IMG/VR virus record: IMGVR_UViG_2690316184_000004
Span: 1 to 7,982 of that record
DNA length: 7,982 nucleotides
Source: a virus
Taxonomy: Duplodnaviria; Heunggongvirae; Uroviricota; Caudoviricetes
Strand: one strand, 5' to 3'
Notes under the pieces: model-generated
Database searches by the model: none
The model's input: only the letters and a program-made list of their open reading frames with translations
What the model was told of the DNA's origin: nothing
Program-made: the position numbers and the translations under genes
Shown here: in pieces, positions 1 through 7,982 of the stretch
Numbering within the stretch: the stretch's first letter is position 1
Layout: every line of letters begins with the position of its first letter

Positions 1-969
1 ATGAGTGAAGTAACAGATTTAGTTGTTATTGAAAAAGCAAATGCAATGACTGTATTTCAGTCTGCCGACCAGATTGAAGAAATCCTTCAAAGGGTTGAAC
101 GTGAAGTTATGTCCTTTGTGCCTGATATCACAACGGCAAAGGGCAGAAAGGAGATCGCTTCTCTGGCGTATAAAGTTGCGCAGACGAAAACATATCTCGA
201 TGGTCTTGGCAAAGACCTTGTTGCTGAACTGAAGGAAATTCCAAAGCTAATTGATGCTAACCGCAAGACAGTGCGTGATCGCCTTGATGAGCTGAAAGCC
301 AAGGCACGCCAGCCTCTTACTGATTATGAGGAAGAACAGGCGCGGATTAAAGCCGAAGAAGAAGCTAAGGCAGCAGCTGAAGCTCTCGCAAAGCAAATTG
401 AGTCTGACCATGAAATAGCGATTTTGATGGATCGCGAATTTGACCGCCAAAGAGAAGAGGCAAGACTCAAAGCGGAGCAGGAAAAGCGAGAGCATGAAGA
501 ACGCTTAAAAAAAGAAGCTGAAGAGAAAGCCAGAGCTGAAGCCGAAGCAAAGGCAAAAGCCGAAATTGAAGCAGCAGCAAGGCGAGAAGCAGAAGCTAAG
601 GCCGCAGCGGAACGTGCAGAGCGTGAACGCATTGAAGCCGAGCAACGAGCACAGCGCGAAGCAAAAGAGGCAGCAGAACGAGCTGAAAGAGAAAAGCAGG
701 CGGCAATTGAAGCAGAACGCCGAAAAGCACAGGAGGAGGCTGAACGAATCCGGCGCGAGGCTGAAGCAAAAGAGCAAGCCAGAATAGCAGAAGAAAAAAG
801 AATCAAGGACGAAGAAGAGCGTAGAGCAAAGGATAAAGCTCACCGGAAAGAAGTAAATAACAAAATACTTGCTGACCTTATCAAGGTTGGCGCATCAGAA
901 GATGTTGCTAAAAATATCATAACAGCCATCGTAAAAGGCGAAGTATTCGCAACAAAAATAACCTACTAA
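1..969 (+). CDS. Phage hypothetical protein with a ~175-aa E/A/K/R-rich helical (coiled-coil or single-alpha-helix-like) central region between globular N- and C-terminal parts; may be 5'-partial since the ORF begins at window base 1
   Basis: 322-aa ORF ending in tandem stops TAATAA (967-972). Residues ~109-284 are almost entirely E, A, K, R in AEAKA/ERAERE-type repeats. Antisense and alternate-frame ORFs in the same span are low-complexity artefacts. First gene of a co-directional phage operon. Confidence 0.6.
   Translation: MSEVTDLVVIEKANAMTVFQSADQIEEILQRVEREVMSFVPDITTAKGRKEIASLAYKVAQTKTYLDGLGKDLVAELKEIPKLIDANRKTVRDRLDELKAKARQPLTDYEEEQARIKAEEEAKAAAEALAKQIESDHEIAILMDREFDRQREEARLKAEQEKREHEERLKKEAEEKARAEAEAKAKAEIEAAARREAEAKAAAERAERERIEAEQRAQREAKEAAERAEREKQAAIEAERRKAQEEAERIRREAEAKEQARIAEEKRIKDEEERRAKDKAHRKEVNNKILADLIKVGASEDVAKNIITAIVKGEVFATKITY
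325..850 (+). repeat. Purine-rich codon-repeat low-complexity tract (GAA/GCA/AAG/CGA codons) encoding the charged helical region of the first CDS
   Basis: Visibly repetitive gaagc/aaggc/gcagaa units in the sequence. It generates spurious ORFs on both strands (87-302, 247-495, 324-806, 505-843 on -, and 566-787 on +). Confidence 0.5.
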
Positions 970-992
970 TAAACCAACATAAGGAACCACCC

Positions 993-1124
993 ATGATTTA
1001 CGCAATCGCGGGAGGCGCTCGCATGGGTGCCTTCCAACTAAATGAATCTTTACTTGAACGAATCACCCGTAAATTACGTGACGGATGGAAAAGAGTTGAG
1101 GTCTTATTATGCGCAATGAAATAG
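993..1124 (+). CDS. cIII: CIII-like small protein (lambda CIII family, inhibitor of host FtsH protease), 43 aa
   Basis: ATG at 993 preceded by AAGGAA (981-986). Product MIYAIAGGARMGAFQLNESLLERITRKLRDGWKRVEVLLCAMK contains the ESLLERITRKLRDGWKR core that I recall as the conserved amphipathic helix of lambda CIII. Below the 60-aa ORF-track cutoff. Sits where cIII lies in lambda, upstream of kil and the recombination genes. Confidence 0.55.
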   Translation: MIYAIAGGARMGAFQLNESLLERITRKLRDGWKRVEVLLCAMK

Positions 1125-1261
1125 CCATTAATCACCAGATGCTTCGTGCGGCACAAAACAAAGCAGTAATAGCCAGATTTATTGGTGATTCAAAAATGTG
1201 GCTTGAAGCAAATAAAGCGATGAAATCAGCTATCAACCTTCCGTGGTATCGCAGGAAATGA
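1109..1261 (+). CDS. Kil-like small protein (candidate host cell-division inhibitor), 50 aa
   Basis: ATG 1109 with GAGG (1098-1101) upstream; overlaps the cIII-like ORF by 16 nt in another frame. Product MRNEIAINHQMLRAAQNKAVIARFIGDSKMWLEANKAMKSAINLPWYRRK. The IA-FIGD-KM motif resembles my recollection of lambda Kil, and the position after cIII matches lambda order. Assignment from memory only. Confidence 0.4.
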   Translation: MRNEIAINHQMLRAAQNKAVIARFIGDSKMWLEANKAMKSAINLPWYRRK

Positions 1262-1416
1262 GTTTTACAGATAACTGGTCAGACGAAGAATTCATTCGTC
1301 AGATGAAAGAATTAATCGGTAACGAAGGAGATATTCATGTCACTTGCAACCACAGTGAAGGAGAGCAAGTTACAGAGGCGCATGTACACGCAGAAAGCTC
1401 TCTGGTATCGCCATAA
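1258..1416 (+). CDS. Hypothetical small phage protein, 52 aa
   Basis: ATG 1258 overlaps the upstream TGA stop (ATGA, 1258-1261), suggesting translational coupling. The only Shine-Dalgarno-like AGGA is 1 nt from the ATG, so the start is uncertain. Product MSFTDNWSDEEFIRQMKELIGNEGDIHVTCNHSEGEQVTEAHVHAESSLVSP. Confidence 0.3.
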   Translation: MSFTDNWSDEEFIRQMKELIGNEGDIHVTCNHSEGEQVTEAHVHAESSLVSP

Positions 1417-1515
1417 TGGCGACCGCGAAGGAATGCGGGTATGCCTTAATTTGTCCCGAGTCGAAGTATTAAATCAGCGTTATTTCCTTGGGCCATGTCC
1501 ATTCTGAGGTGAATT

Positions 1516-2223
1516 ATGGATTTGAACAAATTCGATGAGCCATTCAGCCCTGAAGATATCGAATGGCGAATACAGCAAAGCGGTAAAACACGCGATGGCA
1601 AAGTGTGGGCTATGGTGCTGGCTTATGTCACGAACCGGGCAATCATGAAACGCCTGGACGATGTTTGCGGCAAAGCAGGATGGCGCAATGAATACCGCGA
1701 TATTCCCAACAACGGCGGCGTTGAATGCGGCATATCAATCAAGATTGATTCCGAATGGGTAACCAAATGGGATGCTGCTGAAAACACGCAGGTAGAAGCC
1801 GTCAAAGGTGGTCGTTCAGGTGCAATGAAGCGTGCTGCCGTTCAGTGGGGAATCGGTCGGTATCTGTATAACCTTGAGGAAGGTTTCGCACAAACATCTC
1901 TCGATAAAAAGCAGGGATGGCACAGGGCAAAACTGAAGGATGGAACAGGATTTTACTGGCTCCCTCCATCGCTGCCTGGCTGGGCAATGCCAGTATCAGA
2001 TAACAAACCATCACCAGAAAATACCAACCAGAAATCTCCATCGGTTGACTGCGAACAAATCCTGAAAGACTTCAGCGATTATGCGTCGACAGAAACTGAC
2101 AAGAAAAAACTCATCGAACGTTATCAGCATGACTGGCAATTAATGGCTGGGAATGAGGATGCGCAGGCTAAATGCGTTCAGGTAATGAACATCAGAGTTA
2201 ACGAACTAAAACAGGCGGCATAA
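1516..2223 (+). CDS. Rad52/Sak-like single-strand annealing protein (DUF1071 / Rad52-22 family phage recombinase)
   Basis: 235-aa ORF; GAGG (1506-1509) 6 nt before ATG 1516. Contains the family pattern as I remember it: KRLDDVCGKAGWRNEY ... GISIKIDSEW ... KGGRSGAMKRAAVQWGIGRYLYN (GW...KRA...GIGRYLY). Immediately followed by ssb. Confidence 0.75.
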   Translation: MDLNKFDEPFSPEDIEWRIQQSGKTRDGKVWAMVLAYVTNRAIMKRLDDVCGKAGWRNEYRDIPNNGGVECGISIKIDSEWVTKWDAAENTQVEAVKGGRSGAMKRAAVQWGIGRYLYNLEEGFAQTSLDKKQGWHRAKLKDGTGFYWLPPSLPGWAMPVSDNKPSPENTNQKSPSVDCEQILKDFSDYASTETDKKKLIERYQHDWQLMAGNEDAQAKCVQVMNIRVNELKQAA

Positions 2224-2697
2224 ATGGCAAGCAGAGGCGTAAATAAGGTGATCATTATTGGTCGCCTTGGGCATGATCCAGAAATCAGATATTCACCATC
2301 AGGAACGGCATTTGCAAACCTTACAGTTGCTACGTCAGAACAATGGCGTGATAAGCAAACTGGAGAGCAAAAGGAGCAGACGGAGTGGCACCGTGTGGTA
2401 ATGAGCGGGAAACTGGCAGAAATTGCCAGCGAATATCTGCGAAAAGGCTCTGAGGTTTATCTTGAAGGCAAATTGCGGACAAGAAAATGGCAGGATCAAA
2501 GCGGACAGGATCGGTTCACTACCGAAGTCATCGTGGGCGTTGGTGGAACCATGCAAATGCTTGGTGGCAAGCAAGGAGGAAATGAACAGTCTTCACCTCA
2601 GCGAAATAACGGTCAGCAACAAAGGCAGCAACCTCAGCAGCAGGGAAATCACAGCGAACCACCTATGAACTTCGACGATTCGGATATTCCGTTCTAG
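2224..2697 (+). CDS. ssb: Single-stranded DNA-binding protein (phage-encoded SSB)
   Basis: 157 aa; ATG directly abuts the upstream TAA. N-terminal OB-fold region is near-identical in pattern to E. coli SSB ([58 protein letters not shown]). Gly/Gln-rich linker and acidic C-terminal tail DDSDIPF (E. coli DDDIPF). Confidence 0.95.
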
Positions 2698-2706
2698 GAG
2701 CTGAAA

Positions 2707-3186
2707 ATGAAAATCTGCTCAAGATGCCATCAACAGAAGGAAGAAAGGGACTTTCAAATCAGAAGAGCATCCAGAGATGGATTAACTGCCGCTTGCCGGG
2801 CTTGCCTGGCTGAATACGACAAAGAGCGCGCGGGATTGCCACATCGAGTATCAGCAAGGAGAGAATATCAATCATCGGAACGCGGCAGAGAACGGTGTAA
2901 CGCAGCCAAAAAGCGGTTCATTCAGAGCAACCCATGGAAAAGAAAAGCCCACATCATTGTGGGTAATTTTTTGCGCGACGGTAAGCTAATCCGACCACCA
3001 CAATGTGAGCGCTGCGGATCAGAATGTAAACCACAGGCGCACCACTGCGATTACAGTAAACCTCTTGAAGTAATGTGGCTATGCAAAGCATGTCATGTTG
3101 AATGGCACAAGCACAACAAGCCAATATATCCAGACGAGGAACCAGTAACCCTCCCCTTCCCTCGTCACGCTATTCACGCAATTTAA
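2707..3186 (+). CDS. HNH endonuclease with N-terminal Cys-rich (zinc-ribbon-like) region
   Basis: 159 aa; GGAG (2697-2700) before ATG 2707. C-terminal CERCGS...AHHCDYSKPLEVMWLCKACHVEWHK fits the HNH CxxC...HH...CxxCH pattern. N-terminal CSRCH ... CRAC gives a second Cys pair set. Confidence 0.75.
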   Translation: MKICSRCHQQKEERDFQIRRASRDGLTAACRACLAEYDKERAGLPHRVSARREYQSSERGRERCNAAKKRFIQSNPWKRKAHIIVGNFLRDGKLIRPPQCERCGSECKPQAHHCDYSKPLEVMWLCKACHVEWHKHNKPIYPDEEPVTLPFPRHAIHAI

Positions 3187-3194
3187 GGACTTAC

Positions 3195-3743
3195 ATGAAT
3201 CACTTAATGGTTGACCTTGAAGCAATGGGCAACGGGCCATATGCGCCAGTTATTTCTATTGGGGCGGTATTCTTTGACCCGAATACCGGAGAAACAGGAG
3301 AAGAGTTCTCGGTAAATATCTCGCTTGAGTCATCAATGCGATATCGGGCGCGTCCTGACGCTTCAACGATTTTATGGTGGATGGAACAGAGTGAAGAAGC
3401 CAGAAAATCGCTAACCAGCAACACTCAAGAGCTTTCAACGGCTCTTTCATGGTTATCTGAATTCATCATAAAGAACGCCAACCACAAACTCGTTCAGGTT
3501 TGGGGGAATGGAGCATCATTTGACTGCGTTATTCTCCGCAACAGTTATTCGCTGACAGGGCAGCCAGTTCCGTGGCAGTGGTGGAATGACCGCGACGTAA
3601 GAACAATCGTCGAACTTGGGAAGGTAATAGGATTCGATCCTAAGCGAGATATGCCATTCAAAGGAACTCGCCACAACGCGCTTGATGATGCCATCCACCA
3701 AGCCAAATACGTTTCAGCGATCTGGAAAAAGTTAGCTAAATAA
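3195..3743 (+). CDS. DEDDh-type 3'-5' exonuclease (DnaQ-like fold; resembles the Rv2179c-like exonuclease family found in prophages)
   Basis: Start chosen at ATG 3195 (AAGGAC at 3185-3190) rather than the overlapping 3102 extension. Motif I MVDLEAMG (D-x-E), motif II GNGASFDCVIL (Asp), motif III GTRHNALDDAIHQAKY (His...Asp). Confidence 0.8.
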   Translation: MNHLMVDLEAMGNGPYAPVISIGAVFFDPNTGETGEEFSVNISLESSMRYRARPDASTILWWMEQSEEARKSLTSNTQELSTALSWLSEFIIKNANHKLVQVWGNGASFDCVILRNSYSLTGQPVPWQWWNDRDVRTIVELGKVIGFDPKRDMPFKGTRHNALDDAIHQAKYVSAIWKKLAK

Positions 3744-3759
3744 TCAACAGGAGAAAACC

Positions 3760-4053
3760 ATGCCAGCGCCTCTGTATGGTGCGGATGACCCGCGCCGCTG
3801 TTCCGGCAATTCCGTATCGGAGGTGCTGGATAAATTCAGGAAAAACTACAACCGGATAATGTCGATACCGCAGGAAACGAAAGAGGAAAAGGAATTTCGC
3901 CACTGTATATGGCTTGCAGAGAAAGAAGAACGAGAGCGAATTTACCAGACATCAATCCGACCATTCCGCAAAGCCACATATACCCACTTCCCTGAAATTG
4001 ACCCGCGCCTGCGTAATTACCGCTCACGCTATGGCGCTATCAGTAATGACTGA
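3760..4053 (+). CDS. abc2: Abc2-like protein (P22 anti-RecBCD protein 2 family) - tentative
   Basis: 97 aa; AGGAG (3749-3753) 6 nt before ATG 3760. N-terminus [13 protein letters not shown] and the size match my recollection of P22-type Abc2 annotations in Salmonella/E. coli prophages. Position directly after the recombination genes is consistent. Not verified by alignment. Confidence 0.5.
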
Positions 4054-4063
4054 GGAATTTACC

Positions 4064-4231
4064 ATGAGAGGACTTGCATACAATCCCGGCATTCTTCCGG
4101 CAGAAATGATTATTCGCCAACGCGTAAAGCCAATGCCATCGAGAGAGGAATTGCTTAAGAGAAATTCTTTTCCTTCAGTGAATCAAAACAAATATCTGAA
4201 TGCGATGTGGCGCAAAGGAGGCAACCAGTGA
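4064..4231 (+). CDS. Hypothetical small phage protein, 55 aa
   Basis: ATG 4064 with GAGGAA (4052-4057) upstream; in frame with the track's 3914-4231 ORF but avoids overlap with the upstream gene. Stop TGA overlaps the next GTG start (GTGA, 4228-4231). Product [55 protein letters not shown]. Confidence 0.4.
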
Positions 4232-4671
4232 GCAAGATTGATTATCAAAAGCTTCGTGAAATCGCTGAAAAAACAAAAATTGCTGGTGAAGCACCTGTAA
4301 TGCCTTTCGATCAGCGAATTAATGCGCTTAACGATTTTATGAAGCACTTTTCGCCAGATATCGCGCTGGCATTGTTGGATGAACGGGAAAGAAACCTGCA
4401 ATACATCAAAAGCCGCGATCAGGAGAACGAGGATATTGCGCTAACGGTAGGGAAGCTGCGTGTTGAGCTGGAAGCAGAAAAACAGCGGGCAAAAGTTCTA
4501 TTTATGGAAAATGCTCGGCTTAAGTCAGGCGTAGCCGGTCTGATACACCTCGGTATTCGATATGCAGATGTTGAGGTCATGAGAATTGCTGGAGATGCCC
4601 AGCTTTCTACCCCATGCACTGACAGCATCATAAACAGCATTGCAACAGGCATTCGCATCAAAGGAGAGTGA
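4228..4671 (+). CDS. Ead/Ea22-like protein (N-terminal Ead/Ea22 domain only)
   Basis: Likely GTG start at 4228 with strong AAAGGAGG (4214-4221) 6 nt upstream; the track start at 4207 is also a GTG. N-terminus [15 protein letters not shown]...G matches the (I)DYQALRExAEKA opening typical of Ead/Ea22-like prophage proteins. 147 aa. Confidence 0.6.
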
Positions 4672-4672
4672 G

Positions 4673-4864
4673 ATGAACGGACAAATCTCAATTGTTCGAC
4701 CGGGAGCATGTGACGATCGCGAGATACGAATGATTATTCGTCTGTCGATGGGGAAAACAATAACGGCTCTCATTACTCCAGAAAATCTCGCATTAGCATT
4801 AACCGGAAAGTCAGACCTGCCAGTAGAGCTAAAGCTGCGAAATGTTGAGATTAAGGTGAAATAG
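4673..4864 (+). CDS. Hypothetical small phage protein, 63 aa
   Basis: ATG 4673 with GGAG (4663-4666) 6 nt upstream, 1 nt after the upstream TGA. Product MNGQISIVRPGACDDREIRMIIRLSMGKTITALITPENLALALTGKSDLPVELKLRNVEIKVK. No family recognised. Confidence 0.45.
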   Translation: MNGQISIVRPGACDDREIRMIIRLSMGKTITALITPENLALALTGKSDLPVELKLRNVEIKVK

Positions 4865-4866
4865 CT

Positions 4867-5430
4867 ATGACCACTATAACCAATAAGAAACAGTATCCCA
4901 GCGAGCAATATCTTAATGAGCTGATCACCAACATAGAGTTTGCTGCAAGGGCACCAGTTGAAGTCGTGAGAGCGATGGCAGCAGAGCTACAGAAGCGGCG
5001 CGAAGCTGATAGTGCCGAACCTGCAAGTAATCATGAAGAGTTGCCGCTTGATTATCTCCAAGGTCAAAAAGATGGTCTTGAATGGGCTGCGCAGCTTGCA
5101 GAAGCAAATCACCCACAAACTGGCGACTGGCTTTACGATGACCCGCTGGAGCTGGCTAAAGCTATCAGAAAAGGTCCTGACATGCCCGAATTCGATGGAC
5201 CAACTCCGGTAACTCCGGATGGTTGGATAAGCTGTAGTGAGCAAATGCCTGATGATGGTCAGCACGTAATTATTTTATGTGATGGTGCATTCGTTCTTTA
5301 TGCACAATATCGAGACGGTGAGTTTTTTGATGTTGTCCGCAATGGTGAGGAGTTCTTCGAAACGCAGAGCCGCAATGTAACCGACTGGATGCCTCTACCA
5401 GAACCGCCGCAGGAGGTTAACCGTGGCTAA
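4867..5430 (+). CDS. DUF551-domain phage protein (domain usually found at the C-terminus of Ead/Ea22-like proteins)
   Basis: 187 aa; ATG 4867 two nt after upstream TAG; AAGGTGA (4853-4859) upstream. C-terminal WISCSEQMPDDGQHVIIL...TDWMPLPEPP fits the DUF551 signature (W-I-x-V/C-x-E/D-x-L/M-P ... W-M-P-L-P-E-P-P) as I recall it. Confidence 0.65.
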   Translation: MTTITNKKQYPSEQYLNELITNIEFAARAPVEVVRAMAAELQKRREADSAEPASNHEELPLDYLQGQKDGLEWAAQLAEANHPQTGDWLYDDPLELAKAIRKGPDMPEFDGPTPVTPDGWISCSEQMPDDGQHVIILCDGAFVLYAQYRDGEFFDVVRNGEEFFETQSRNVTDWMPLPEPPQEVNRG

Positions 5431-5707
5431 CCTTCAACTGGTAGTTAACGGTGAATATTTCGACCAGATGAAGTCAGGCGAGAAAACGGAAGAGTATCGC
5501 CTGTGTAATGACTACTGGAATAAGCGAATTATGTTCCGGGAGTATGACCGCCTGATTATCACAAAGGGATATCCGAAGCGCGACGATTCCAGCCGCAGAA
5601 TTGATGTTCCGTATGACGGATATGAAATCAAGACAATCACACATCCGCACTTCGGCGATAAACCGGTAAAGGTATACGCGATAAAGGTGAATATCGGCAA
5701 TGAATAA
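5423..5707 (+). CDS. Hypothetical phage protein, possibly ASCH/PUA-like fold
   Basis: GTG 5423 with AGGAGG (5411-5416) 6 nt upstream; overlaps the upstream stop by 8 nt. 94 aa. Pattern VVNGEYFDQMKSGEKTEEYR ... LIITKGY ... VKVYAIKV loosely resembles ASCH-domain beta-barrel proteins (e.g. YqfB-like). Weak assignment. Confidence 0.5.
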   Translation: MANLQLVVNGEYFDQMKSGEKTEEYRLCNDYWNKRIMFREYDRLIITKGYPKRDDSSRRIDVPYDGYEIKTITHPHFGDKPVKVYAIKVNIGNE

Positions 5708-5742
5708 CAATCCTCGCACTCGCGGTGATTTCTTTTATCTGA

Positions 5743-5766
5743 ACTCGCTACGGCGAGTTTTGTTTT
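5743..5766 (+). terminator. Intrinsic terminator-like hairpin (internal operon terminator or attenuator)
   Basis: 6-bp perfect stem ACTCGC (5743-5748) / GCGAGT (5753-5758), 4-nt loop TACG, followed by TTTTGTTTT. Lies in the 72-nt gap between CDS 5423-5707 and CDS 5780-5947. Confidence 0.4.
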
Positions 5767-5779
5767 ATGGAGATGATAA

Positions 5780-5947
5780 ATGCACTTCCGAGTCACAGGT
5801 GAATGGAATGGAGAACCATTCAACAGGGTTATCGAAGCAGAGGACATCAACGACTGCTATGCCCACTGGATGCTGTGGGCGCAGATAGCGCATGCAGACG
5901 TAACCAATATTCGAATTGAAGAACTGAAAGAACACCAAGCCGCCTGA
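5780..5947 (+). CDS. Hypothetical small phage protein, 55 aa
   Basis: ATG 5780 with GGAG (5769-5772) 7 nt upstream; stop TGA sits in the loop of the downstream terminator. Product MHFRVTGEWNGEPFNRVIEAEDINDCYAHWMLWAQIAHADVTNIRIEELKEHQAA. Preferred over the overlapping track ORF 5700-5888. Confidence 0.4.
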   Translation: MHFRVTGEWNGEPFNRVIEAEDINDCYAHWMLWAQIAHADVTNIRIEELKEHQAA

Positions 5948-5962
5948 TGGCGGTTTTTTATT
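5939..5962 (+). terminator. Rho-independent terminator
   Basis: GC-rich stem CCGCC (5940-5944) / GGCGG (5949-5953) with 4-nt loop TGAT, followed by T-run TTTTTTATT (5954-5962). Confidence 0.6.
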
Positions 5963-6004
5963 ACCTGATTTGCAGGTTCGATTCCCTATTCGGAGATAGC
6001 ACTC

Positions 6005-6205
6005 ATGCAACACGAACTACAACCTGATTCACTGGTTGATTTGAAATTCATCATGGCCGATACTGGCTTTGGTAAAACCTTCATCTATGACCGGATTAAG
6101 TCCGGCGACCTGCCAAAAGCCAAAGTTATCCACGGTCGAGCAAGATGGTTATATCGTGACCATTGTGAATTCAAAAATAAGCTCTTAAGCCGCGCCAATG
6201 GGTAA
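6005..6205 (+). CDS. AlpA/Xis-like prophage DNA-binding protein (excisionase or transcriptional regulator family)
   Basis: 66 aa; GGAGA (5991-5995) upstream of ATG 6005. FIMADTGFGKTFIYDRIKSGDLPKAKVIHGRARWLYRDHCEF fits the AlpA-family pattern (helix-turn-helix, tG.s.stIY..i..G.FP, conserved Trp). Last gene of the phage operon, where xis sits in lambdoid phages. Confidence 0.7.
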   Translation: MQHELQPDSLVDLKFIMADTGFGKTFIYDRIKSGDLPKAKVIHGRARWLYRDHCEFKNKLLSRANG

Positions 6206-6221
6206 AATAGCGGGTAAAATA
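6200..6221 (+). repeat. Tandem direct repeat GGGTAAAATA x2 (12-bp period) overlapping the AlpA-like stop codon
   Basis: GGGTAAAATA at 6200-6209 and again at 6212-6221, separated by GC. Each copy contains a -10-like TAAAAT. Confidence 0.4.
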
Positions 6222-6254
6222 TTTCTCACATCTAAAAAACACCATTCCAATCAA

Positions 6255-6288
6255 TCCCCTGCTGCTTCAAGTAGATGTCTGCAGGGGA
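6255..6288. repeat. 8-bp inverted repeat TCCCCTGC / GCAGGGGA with 18-nt spacer
   Basis: TCCCCTGC (6255-6262) is the exact reverse complement of GCAGGGGA (6281-6288). No U-tract follows on either strand. Confidence 0.35.
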
Positions 6289-6681
6289 CACCAGATACCC
6301 TTCAAACGAAATCTACCTTCACCCCGTAAAAGATGGGTTTGGCAGCACACTTGCCTTATATCTACTCATTTTTACTGCAACAGGTTGAAATCTCAGCACT
6401 GTCAGAAAGCGCTGATGACTAAACAGCCCTGAGCCGGGCGATGTAACCATCACACAGAATCCTGATAGCGAAATATGGCGTGACTCGATACTTCACTCCG
6501 CAATGCATTCCTTGATGAATTCGCAGGACCGTGATACACGGGACAGGTCACTGAATGACGACAATGTCCTGGAAATCAGCGAACCGCGCATCTGAAGTAC
6601 ATTTGAGCGACTGTACCAGAACATGAATGAGGCGTTTGGATTAGGCGATTATTAGCAGGGCTAAGCATTTTACTATTATTA

Positions 6682-6725
6682 TTTTCCGGTTGAGGGATAT
6701 AGAGCTATCGACAACAACCGGAAAA
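6682..6725. repeat. 11-bp perfect inverted repeat TTTTCCGGTTG / CAACCGGAAAA with 22-nt spacer, 10 bp from the transporter stop codon
   Basis: TTTTCCGGTTG (6682-6692) and CAACCGGAAAA (6715-6725) are exact reverse complements. The T/A runs are part of the stem, not a 3' U-tract, so it is not a canonical intrinsic terminator on either strand. Confidence 0.4.
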
Positions 6726-6734
6726 AGTTTACGT

Positions 6735-7982
6735 CTATATTGCTGAAGGTACAGGCGTTTCCATAACTATTTGCTCGCGTTTTTTACTCAAGAAGAAAAT
6801 GCCAAATAGCAACATCAGGCAGACAATACCCGAAATTGCGAAGAAAACTGTCTGGTAGCCTGCGTGGTCAAAGAGTATCCCAGTCGGCGTTGAAAGCAGC
6901 ACAATCCCAAGCGAACTGGCAATTTGAAAACCAATCAGAAAGATCGTCGACGACAGGCGCTTATCAAAGTTTGCCACGCTGTATTTGAAGACGGATATGA
7001 CACAAAGTGGAACCTCAATGGCATGTAACAACTTCACTAATGAAATAATCCAGGGGTTAACGAACAGCGCGCAGGAAAGGATACGCAACGCCATAATCAC
7101 AACTCCGATAAGTAATGCATTTTTTGGCCCTACCCGATTCACAAAGAAAGGAATAATCGCCATGCACAGCGCTTCGAGTACCACCTGGAATGAGTTGAGA
7201 TAACCATACAGGCGCGTTCCTACATCGTGTGATTCGAATAAACCTGCATAAAAGACAGGAAAAAGTTGTTGATCAAAAATGTTATAGAAAGACCACGTCC
7301 CCACAATAAATATGACGAAAACCCAGAAGTTTCGATCCTTGAAAACTGCGATAAAATCCTCTTTTTTTACCCCTCCCGCATCTGCCGCTACGCACTGGTG
7401 ATCCTTATCTTTAAAACGCATGTTGATCATCATAAATACAGCGCCAAATAGCGAGACCAACCAGAAGTTGATATGGGGACTGATACTAAAAAATATGCCG
7501 GCAAAGAACGCGCCAATAGCATAGCCAAAAGATCCCCAGGCGCGCGCTGTTCCATATTCGAAATGAAAATTTCGCGCCATTTTTTCGGTGAAGCTATCAA
7601 GCAAACCGCATCCCGCCAGATACCCCAAGCCAAAAAATAGCGCCCCCGGAATTAGACCTACAGAAAAATTGCTTTGCAGTAACGGTTCATAAACGTAAAT
7701 CATAAACGGTCCGGTCAAGACCAGGATGAAACTCATACACCAGATGAGCGGTTTCTTCAGACCGAGTTTATCCTGAACGATGCCGTAGAACATCATAAAT
7801 AGAATGCTGGTAAACTGGTTGACCGAATAAAGTGTACCTAATTCCGTCCCTGTCAACCCTAGATGTCCTTTCAGCCAAATAGCGTATAACGACCACCACA
7901 GCGACCAGGAAATAAAAAAGAGAAATGAGTAACTGGATGCAAAACGATAGTACGCATTTCTGAATGGAATATTCAGTGCCAT
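6735..7982 (-). CDS. MFS transporter of the LacY-like oligosaccharide:H+ symporter family (substrate unknown)
   Basis: 415-aa ORF on the - strand with ATG at the very window edge (7980-7982), stop TAG at 6735-6737. Highly hydrophobic with about 12 predicted TM segments. N-terminal NAYYRFASSYSFLFFISWSLWWSLYAIWL parallels LacY [28 protein letters not shown]. The true start may lie beyond the window. Confidence 0.85.
   Translation of the reverse strand: MALNIPFRNAYYRFASSYSFLFFISWSLWWSLYAIWLKGHLGLTGTELGTLYSVNQFTSILFMMFYGIVQDKLGLKKPLIWCMSFILVLTGPFMIYVYEPLLQSNFSVGLIPGALFFGLGYLAGCGLLDSFTEKMARNFHFEYGTARAWGSFGYAIGAFFAGIFFSISPHINFWLVSLFGAVFMMINMRFKDKDHQCVAADAGGVKKEDFIAVFKDRNFWVFVIFIVGTWSFYNIFDQQLFPVFYAGLFESHDVGTRLYGYLNSFQVVLEALCMAIIPFFVNRVGPKNALLIGVVIMALRILSCALFVNPWIISLVKLLHAIEVPLCVISVFKYSVANFDKRLSSTIFLIGFQIASSLGIVLLSTPTGILFDHAGYQTVFFAISGIVCLMLLFGIFFLSKKREQIVMETPVPSAI

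Follow-up and report, generated by a model that had tools for sequence, protein, structure and literature searches.

Lambda Ea22 has been reported to favour lysogeny and to form a tetrameric coiled coil (Dydecka et al. 2020, PMC7093339; Goddard et al. 2024, PMC10834534). The genes for Ea22 are mosaic in structure, and the Ea22 V2 variant of Stx phages carries a DUF551 domain (PMC10834534). Short conserved boundaries that guide homologous recombination between phages are attributed, in PMC3029335, to Clark et al. 2001 (on HK620) and to Susskind & Botstein 1978. Here we analyse a 7,982-nucleotide (nt) stretch of Caudoviricetes DNA (IMG/VR record IMGVR_UViG_2690316184_000004, positions 1 to 7,982; hereafter the window), in which an Ead/Ea22-like gene, a gene of 63 amino acids (aa) and a DUF551 gene follow one another. 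We find that this trio is best explained as accessory genes of an ordinary kind, separate and translationally coupled, that belong to the early-left 'ea' region (the exo-xis region of lambda) of an HK620/P22-like prophage and owe their layout to lambdoid mosaicism and not to insertion into a fused gene, a reading to which we assign a probability of roughly 0.85.

The list of open reading frames (ORFs), Pfam and phrog profiles bear out the three + strand genes described in an earlier note on this DNA, which had been made from the sequence alone. The Ead/Ea22-like protein matches PF13935 (Ead_Ea22) over the whole model (positions 1–139 of 139, residues 2–116, E = 2.5e-21, 77.1 bits against a cut-off of 27), and the DUF551 protein matches PF04448, also over the whole model (1–68 of 68, residues 119–182, E = 3.4e-20, 73.1 bits against a cut-off of 22). 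The 63-aa protein aligns full length with phrog_1222 (1–63 of 63, E = 1.2e-40) and has no match in Pfam or NCBIfam; NCBIfam gave zero matches for all five proteins tested. Stop codons at 4669–4671 and 4862–4864 part the three reading frames, and the DUF551 protein shows no Ead_Ea22 match at E up to 0.01, so that the two domains do not reside in one polypeptide here. The genes are tightly packed on the + strand: a single nucleotide separates the Ead-like gene from the 63-aa gene (TGA g ATG) and two nucleotides separate the latter from the DUF551 gene (TAG ct ATG). Upstream, the GTG start of the Ead-like gene overlaps the DUF2737 stop (GTGA, 4228–4231), and a Shine-Dalgarno sequence read directly from the DNA (AGGAGG, 4216–4221, +) lies 6 nt 5′ of it. 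Downstream, the ASCH-domain gene begins with a GTG inside the DUF551 gene, with which it shares 8 nt, and forms the next link in this translationally coupled string. RefSeq calls the 100% identical Ead-like gene of Escherichia coli KD602 a pseudogene 'missing N-terminus' (locus L002, 5966–6472; window 4165–4671). The GTG start is the probable cause of this label, which we take to be an artefact, since the Pfam model is matched from position 1 and a good ribosome-binding site precedes the GTG at 4228.

The same trio is found in other phages. In HK620 (NC_002730), hkaG (ead/Ea22-like), hkaF (63 aa) and hkaE (DUF551) are separated by gaps of 1 and 2 nt identical to those of the window, and the record notes relate hkaG and hkaE to eaD and eaA of P22 and to L0140 of 933W. 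The 63-aa gene holds the same position with the same spacing in ST160 (Orf8-Orf7-Orf6) and in Stx phage phi191 (gp41-gp42-gp43). A literature search for hkaF, hkaE and hkaG returned no relevant report. We then compared 80 IMG/VR viral contigs with the 63-aa gene, a set made up of the closest relatives of the 63-aa protein and not drawn at random. In 77 of them the upstream gene stops 1 nt short of the 63-aa ATG, and in 72 the downstream gene starts 2 nt beyond the 63-aa stop. Unique upstream neighbours are mostly Ead_Ea22 proteins (35/50), with a few Mom-like ones (3/50); unique downstream neighbours are mostly DUF551 proteins (45/57), six of the 57 carry a dATP/dGTP pyrophosphohydrolase domain and none carries an Ead domain. 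At 80% coverage or more, a 233-nt segment that opens with the gene boundary, spans the 63-aa gene and reaches into the beginning of the DUF551 gene occurs in 716 of 5,426 complete E. coli genomes (~13%), including O157:H7 strains and strain 042, where the usual annotation reads 'ead/Ea22-like', 'hypothetical' and 'DUF551' in turn. The whole 1,241-base-pair (bp) trio region (4200–5440) is 100% identical in one complete genome only, that of KD602, since each segment has a separate history; the prophage around it in KD602 is different. A layout that the HK620 annotation already records and that about 13% of the complete E. coli genomes share is most simply ordinary phage gene shuffling, and the arrangement is already known both in kind and in specific form.

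The earlier note had proposed that Ead/Ea22 and DUF551 are often fused in one prophage protein, and that here an insertion had split them. Fusions do occur: both domains share one ORF in 8 of 80 DUF551 loci, a sample ranked by similarity to the window's domain, and fused forms include Stx Ea22 V2 (PMC10834534) and L0140 of 933W, which the HK620 record likens to both hkaG and hkaE. 'Often' is nevertheless too strong, as a separate Ead-like gene lies upstream in 35 of these loci, no Ead-like gene is found within ~3 kb upstream in 37, and the 120 closest homologues of the window DUF551 protein all carry PF04448 only, none with an Ead domain. The comparison of domain architecture that the note had proposed thus returns separate genes as the usual state and fusions as a minority. 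Both halves of the observation that the note had named as fatal to its own reading largely hold, with the domains in separate genes at 72 of the 80 DUF551 loci and the 63-aa ORF conserved in this position in the contigs and E. coli genomes described above (77/80 and 716).

If a mobile 63-aa gene had split an ancestral Ead+DUF551 gene, one would expect what is indeed seen, that the 63-aa gene is missing from some otherwise similar loci and that its homologues turn up in other contexts, for example in Dhillonvirus. The loci that lack it, however, are still two genes: in L110, L163, L128, L141 and L088 the same Ead stop is followed by 1 nt and the ATG of the DUF551 gene, and L163 combines an Ead protein near-identical to that of the window with a DUF551 gene directly next to it. 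In split loci the Ead protein keeps its own C-terminal part and a ...GIRIKGE-stop ending, while the DUF551 protein keeps an N-terminal region of ~110 aa and its MTTIT start, and both features are retained where the 63-aa gene is absent. Fused proteins lack these very parts, namely the Ead C-terminal part and tail and the first ~50–110 aa of the DUF551 gene, and join the Ead coiled coil straight to the DUF551-gene linker (...KRIAELEAE followed directly by PVSQTYKL...). Simple insertion therefore cannot interconvert fused and split forms. Fused locus L159 and split locus L167 align as two collinear blocks, 566 nt at 99.5% and 261 nt at 96.6% identity, which overlap by 8 nt in the fused sequence; L159 lacks 526 bp of the split locus, a stretch that includes the C-terminal end of the Ead gene, the boundary, a gene of 87 aa and the beginning of the DUF551 gene. 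This pattern fits a 526-bp deletion at an 8-nt repeat. In the simplest reading of these alignments, at least some fusions would be split loci that lost the stretch between short repeats in the two genes, the reverse of the proposed insertion. The 63-aa gene, moreover, has neither flanking repeats nor a mobility gene. We consider it very improbable that an insertion split a fused gene here, while the modular shuffling that the note also suggested is upheld by sharp breakpoints and by the presence or absence of the 63-aa gene among related loci.

Three points weigh against our explanation. The locus samples are not random, so the frequencies are rough; the 63-aa gene lies upstream of DUF551 in only 3 of the 80 DUF551 loci, which makes it a common and not a universal cassette; and the direction of the L159/L167 event, deletion or insertion, was assigned by parsimony and microhomology.

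At the junction of the Ead-like and 63-aa genes lies a conserved boundary sequence, in which the upstream gene has its final codons and stop and the gene that follows has both its ribosome-binding site (AAAGGAG) and its ATG. The general form of the boundary, GGCATTCGCATCAAAGGAGAGTGA(G/T)ATG, encodes the GIRIKGE tail (last 8 codons) of the upstream gene, and ...GIRIKGE-stop ends every upstream gene whatever its family, be it Ead-like of many kinds, Mom-like or other. Across 41 junctions differing in at least one flank, pairwise identity is 0.93–0.99 over the last 20 nt before the stop and ~0.3 beyond −30 and +10; positions −16 to 0 served as the search anchor, so that the information lies in how far the identity extends beyond them and how steeply it then drops. 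Many blastn matches start exactly at 4648. The boundary occurs once in the window against 0.01 expected, and is carried by at least 120 viral contigs. Viral contigs were also scanned for the boundary irrespective of the gene that follows, which gave at least 81 occurrences and rough frequencies. Among those listed, the boundary is followed by an 87-aa gene in 15, the 63-aa gene in 14, a 171-aa gene in ~12, a DUF551 gene directly in 8–11, a 95-aa gene in 5 and a 251-aa gene in 4, rarer genes making up the remainder. The slot after the boundary is thus variable: at least 10 alternative genes occupy it, among them the 63-aa gene, which is frequent but optional. In L038 and L069 (3505–4195), an Ead-like gene and boundary are followed by a Mom-family-like 165-aa gene (PF25680) that also ends in GIRIKGE-stop, and then by the 63-aa gene; as this tandem boundary shows, cassettes can bring their own copy. 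One could go further and propose that the boundary is a maintained cassette-exchange site, integron-like but with no integrase, that serves at least ten early genes (the 63-aa and Mom-like genes included) and is kept beyond what ancestry or ribosome-binding constraint would explain. We regard this idea as unlikely, and would say the same of a separate proposal, that the 63-aa protein is a working partner of EaA/DUF551 proteins.

Since the earlier note raised the possibility that the 63-aa ORF is a mobile moron, we asked how it compares with one. Morons are inserted between phage genes as independent transcription units. Like a moron, the 63-aa ORF is an extra small gene between genes that are directly adjacent in relatives (the five loci above). 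Unlike one, it has spacing typical of translational coupling and no transcription signals of its own: a consensus scan of 3700–6300 found 0 promoter-like sites, and on the + strand of the same span no terminator-like site precedes 5741, the sole ones being hairpins at 5741–5760 and 5937–5956 that flank the 55-aa EaG-like gene. The fraction of G and C is 0.435–0.46 across the 63-aa gene and 0.44–0.50 in the flanking genes, with no composition anomaly. Lacking its own promoter and terminator and any shift in composition, the gene fails the classical moron definition on those points, and we do not retain the label. Homologues in other contexts, for which the note had suggested looking, do exist. 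A homologue ~65% identical is present in ~59 virulent Dhillonvirus genomes, between DNA polymerase and a VRR-NUC nuclease, which hints at a DNA-related or host-takeover role for the protein but proves nothing. Named virulent copies are those of phage 'rolling' (L086, 2501–2692) and phage Av-05 (L087, 2501–2692); in Av-05, a member of the Vequintavirinae, the homologue sits in a small ea-like cluster and a 220-aa gene starts 2 nt after it.

Is the 63-aa ORF a gene at all? A conserved spacer or recombination linker, open by chance, might also be expected to lie between variable genes, as this ORF does, to be very highly conserved in nucleotides among lambdoid phages and to yield a product with no function or fold match. 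The HK620 (L085, 2501–2689) and Salmonella phage ST160 (L289, 2001–2189) copies are indeed 100% identical in nucleotides, which we take to reflect recent exchange between phages of E. coli and Salmonella, and the protein gave no informative sequence or fold match (PDB sequences, fold search, NCBIfam). Several results speak against a spacer. Against HK620 hkaF, the ratio of nonsynonymous to synonymous substitution rates (dN/dS) is 0.15 with 94% protein identity, and distant homologues are more alike in amino acids than in nucleotides (67% versus 61% for a Dhillonvirus copy), synonymous sites being saturated. Its 86 homologues, from Escherichia, Salmonella, Enterobacter, Citrobacter, Cronobacter, Serratia and Pectobacterium, are mostly exactly 63 aa long, 12 columns are invariant in an alignment of 46 sequences, the AlphaFold2 model is confident, with a mean predicted local distance difference test (pLDDT) score of 80.5, the boundary supplies a strong ribosome-binding site, and the gene is kept in unrelated virulent phages in a different context. 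These comparisons, together with the model, show that the ORF is a real gene, and a chance-open spacer is the least probable of the explanations considered here.

The family is small, with 85 matches in an exhaustive profile search of 1.84 billion representatives. Long multi-stretch matches in that search were RCC1, Listeria-Bacteroides-repeat and cadherin-like repeat proteins, which were treated as composition or repeat artefacts, and medium-length matches with C-terminal extensions contained no Pfam domains. A scan of one genome per species found the 63-aa gene at 2 loci, too few for context. In some contigs and database proteins (P0207-P0210) the Ead-like and 63-aa proteins are fused in frame via ...AFASKESEM.... 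Programmed frameshifting from Ead into the 63-aa frame was considered, as that frame is open upstream of its own ATG and some database proteins are Ead-63aa fusions, and was rejected for want of any evidence of a slippery site. The fusion in L045 (3443–4192) results from a 1-nt deletion in the boundary (GGCATTCGC to GGCTTCGC), either a real mutation or a sequencing error.

A further possibility is that the 63-aa and DUF551 genes form a functional two-gene module that travels together, with the 63-aa protein as, for instance, a small partner or regulator of an EaA-type protein. The regular 2-nt spacing and the predominance of DUF551 among downstream proteins noted above agree with this, as do the pairing in HK620, the spacing in ST160 and virulent Av-05, and a distant relative (P0213) in which the 63-aa domain is fused to a segment found also in EaA-type proteins. 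Against it, 77 of the 80 DUF551 loci have no 63-aa gene, the ~59 Dhillonvirus genomes carry the homologue without a DUF551 neighbour, and a dATP/dGTP pyrophosphohydrolase fusion or some other gene sometimes takes the downstream place. Where DUF551 proteins do follow, they are highly diverse (36–95% identity to the window core) while the 63-aa proteins are 95–100% identical, a disparity that a shared recombination patch fits better than co-evolution. We therefore think a functional module improbable and return to mosaic exchange of separate genes.

The internal structure of the region agrees with such exchange. Comparison with 286 related loci, with matches accepted from 90% identity upwards, gives a mosaic map with recurrent breakpoints at ~4212–4232, 4354–4376, 4475–4482, 4648, ~4883, 5204, 5249 and 5377, within which widely shared blocks alternate with rarer segments (Table 1). 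The two ends of the DUF551 domain, PVTPDGWISCSERMP and HWMPLPEPPQEV, are strongly conserved (loci L005-L167; window 5204–5420) and are shared by more loci than any other segment of the region (up to 162 of the 286); between them lie at least 12 unrelated cores of ~30–60 aa. As judged from these sequence matches, the patchwork is typical lambdoid mosaicism. A plausible mechanism is that genes in this region end in short conserved boundaries that bring the ribosome-binding site and start of the next gene, and that recombination at these boundaries and at conserved intragenic blocks swaps genes or gene segments between phages. The 63-aa gene would then be one frequent occupant of the slot after the boundary. 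Exchange may proceed by short-homology recombination through host or phage recombinases, for which the Rad52/Erf-type protein of the window is a candidate, and the trio would be co-transcribed from pL.

Table 1. Features of the window and segments of the trio region
Feature	Position	Strand	Basis
Coiled-coil protein	1–969	+	
cIII	993–1124	+	
kil	1109–1261	+	
Rad52/Erf-type recombinase	1516–2223	+	
ssb	2224–2697	+	
Cys-rich endonuclease-like ORF, 159 aa	2707–3186	+	phrog_2340 'endonuclease', E = 1.8e-47
3′-5′ exonuclease	~3195–3743	+	
abc2 (anti-RecBCD)	3760–4053	+	
DUF2737	ends 4231	+	ORF list
Ead/Ea22-like gene, 147 aa, P22 eaD / HK620 hkaG type	4228–4671	+	Pfam PF13935, phrog_368, phrog_250
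Ead-like gene, widely shared block	4360–4480	+	Mosaic map
Ead-like gene, rarer C-terminal part	4482–4647	+	Mosaic map
Conserved gene-boundary sequence GGCATTCGCATCAAAGGAGAGTGAGATG (~27 nt)	4648–4675	+	
63-aa gene, HK620 hkaF family	4673–4864	+	phrog_1222
DUF551 gene, 187 aa, P22 eaA / HK620 hkaE type	4867–5430	+	Pfam PF04448
DUF551 gene, rarer N-terminal helical part, preceded by the conserved MTTIT start	4883–5203	+	Mosaic map
DUF551 gene, widely shared block PVTPDGWISCSEQMP (PVTPDGWISCSE.MP)	5204–5249	+	Mosaic map
DUF551 gene, one of many alternative domain cores	5250–5376	+	
DUF551 gene, widely shared block WMPLPEPPQEV, carries ribosome-binding site of next gene	5377–5420	+	
ASCH-domain gene	5423–5707	+	RefSeq annotation of identical DNA in E. 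coli KD602; phrog_625, E = 1.5e-49
55-aa EaG-like gene	5780–5947	+	phrog_676
TorI-type excisionase	6005–6205	+	
cscB	6735–7982	−	

The window as a whole is the early-left accessory region of a lambdoid E. coli prophage adjoining the sucrose (csc) locus, with all phage genes on the + strand. Between ssb and the exonuclease gene lies a 159-aa ORF without a Pfam match. In KD602 the exonuclease gene follows ssb after 8 nt with no counterpart between them, and in strain ISHS7 a matching stretch (~500 nt) is unannotated. This ORF, possibly a homing-type endonuclease, is a better candidate for a genuine inserted gene than the 63-aa gene. At the other end, the excisionase gene is followed by ~530 nt and then by cscB on the opposite strand, and neither an integrase nor a tRNA gene is present in the 7,982 nt. 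The attP core of HK620 is situated between the excisionase gene and int, so that int is expected at the opposite prophage end. KD602, which shares the trio, has an integrase directly after torI, unlike the window.

By analogy with lambda Ea22, all three proteins are probably early, non-essential accessory proteins of the pL operon and likely modulators of the lysis-lysogeny decision or of host takeover. We know of no function for DUF551. The AlphaFold2 model of the DUF551 protein has a mean pLDDT of 50.4, with only the DUF551 part reaching ~70, and a Foldseek search of this model against the PDB gave nothing below E = 0.2, with weak, non-significant likeness to Tudor/SH3-like barrels. The Mom-like genes and dATP/dGTP pyrophosphohydrolase fusions of related loci and the nearby anti-RecBCD gene point to roles in host takeover or counter-defence. 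The arrangement carries little weight as a discovery, since it fits the established model of lambdoid mosaics. Its use is corrective: the default assumption in this phage group should be that Ead/Ea22 and DUF551 are encoded by separate genes, deletion appears to be the source of the fused forms, and the 63-aa gene should not be named a moron. The boundary and its alternative downstream genes could also help to catalogue the accessory genes of early-left operons.

Comparison with described systems places the locus further. The 63-aa protein shares its length and its general lambdoid region (exo-xis) with lambda Orf63. In lambda, orf63 presumably lies upstream of ea22 and not downstream. Searching PDB sequences with the 63-aa profile (E up to 10) gave four chance-level matches (best E = 0.93) and no phage protein, although the presence of the Orf63 chain in that PDB copy is unconfirmed. 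We reject a relationship to Orf63, for which a nuclear magnetic resonance structure has been reported (PMC10869804), and the shared length is a coincidence. The boundary resembles the lambdoid boundary or linker sequences of Susskind & Botstein 1978 and Clark et al. 2001, as cited in PMC3029335, in being a short conserved sequence at a gene junction, with unrelated flanks, that recurs at many different junctions; the list of at least 10 alternative genes after it comes from the present analysis. With Ea22 of lambda and Stx phages (exo-xis region) the window protein shares the Ead_Ea22 signature, a mosaic architecture in which an N-terminal segment and a coiled coil are combined with an exchangeable C-terminal domain, and an early-transcribed position upstream of xis. 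It differs in that the Ead-like and DUF551 parts are separate polypeptides with a gene between them, and the pro-lysogenic effect is one reported for lambda and Stx Ea22. HK620 has the same three families in the same order, strand and spacing, within the same neighbourhood running from abc2 and DUF2737 to a TorI-type excisionase. Its Ead-like protein is longer (238 aa) with another middle and C-terminal part, its DUF551 protein has another N-terminal part, and an extra gene, hkaH, precedes its Ead-like gene. An EaG-type gene follows hkaE in HK620, whereas in the window an ASCH gene comes before the 55-aa EaG-like gene.

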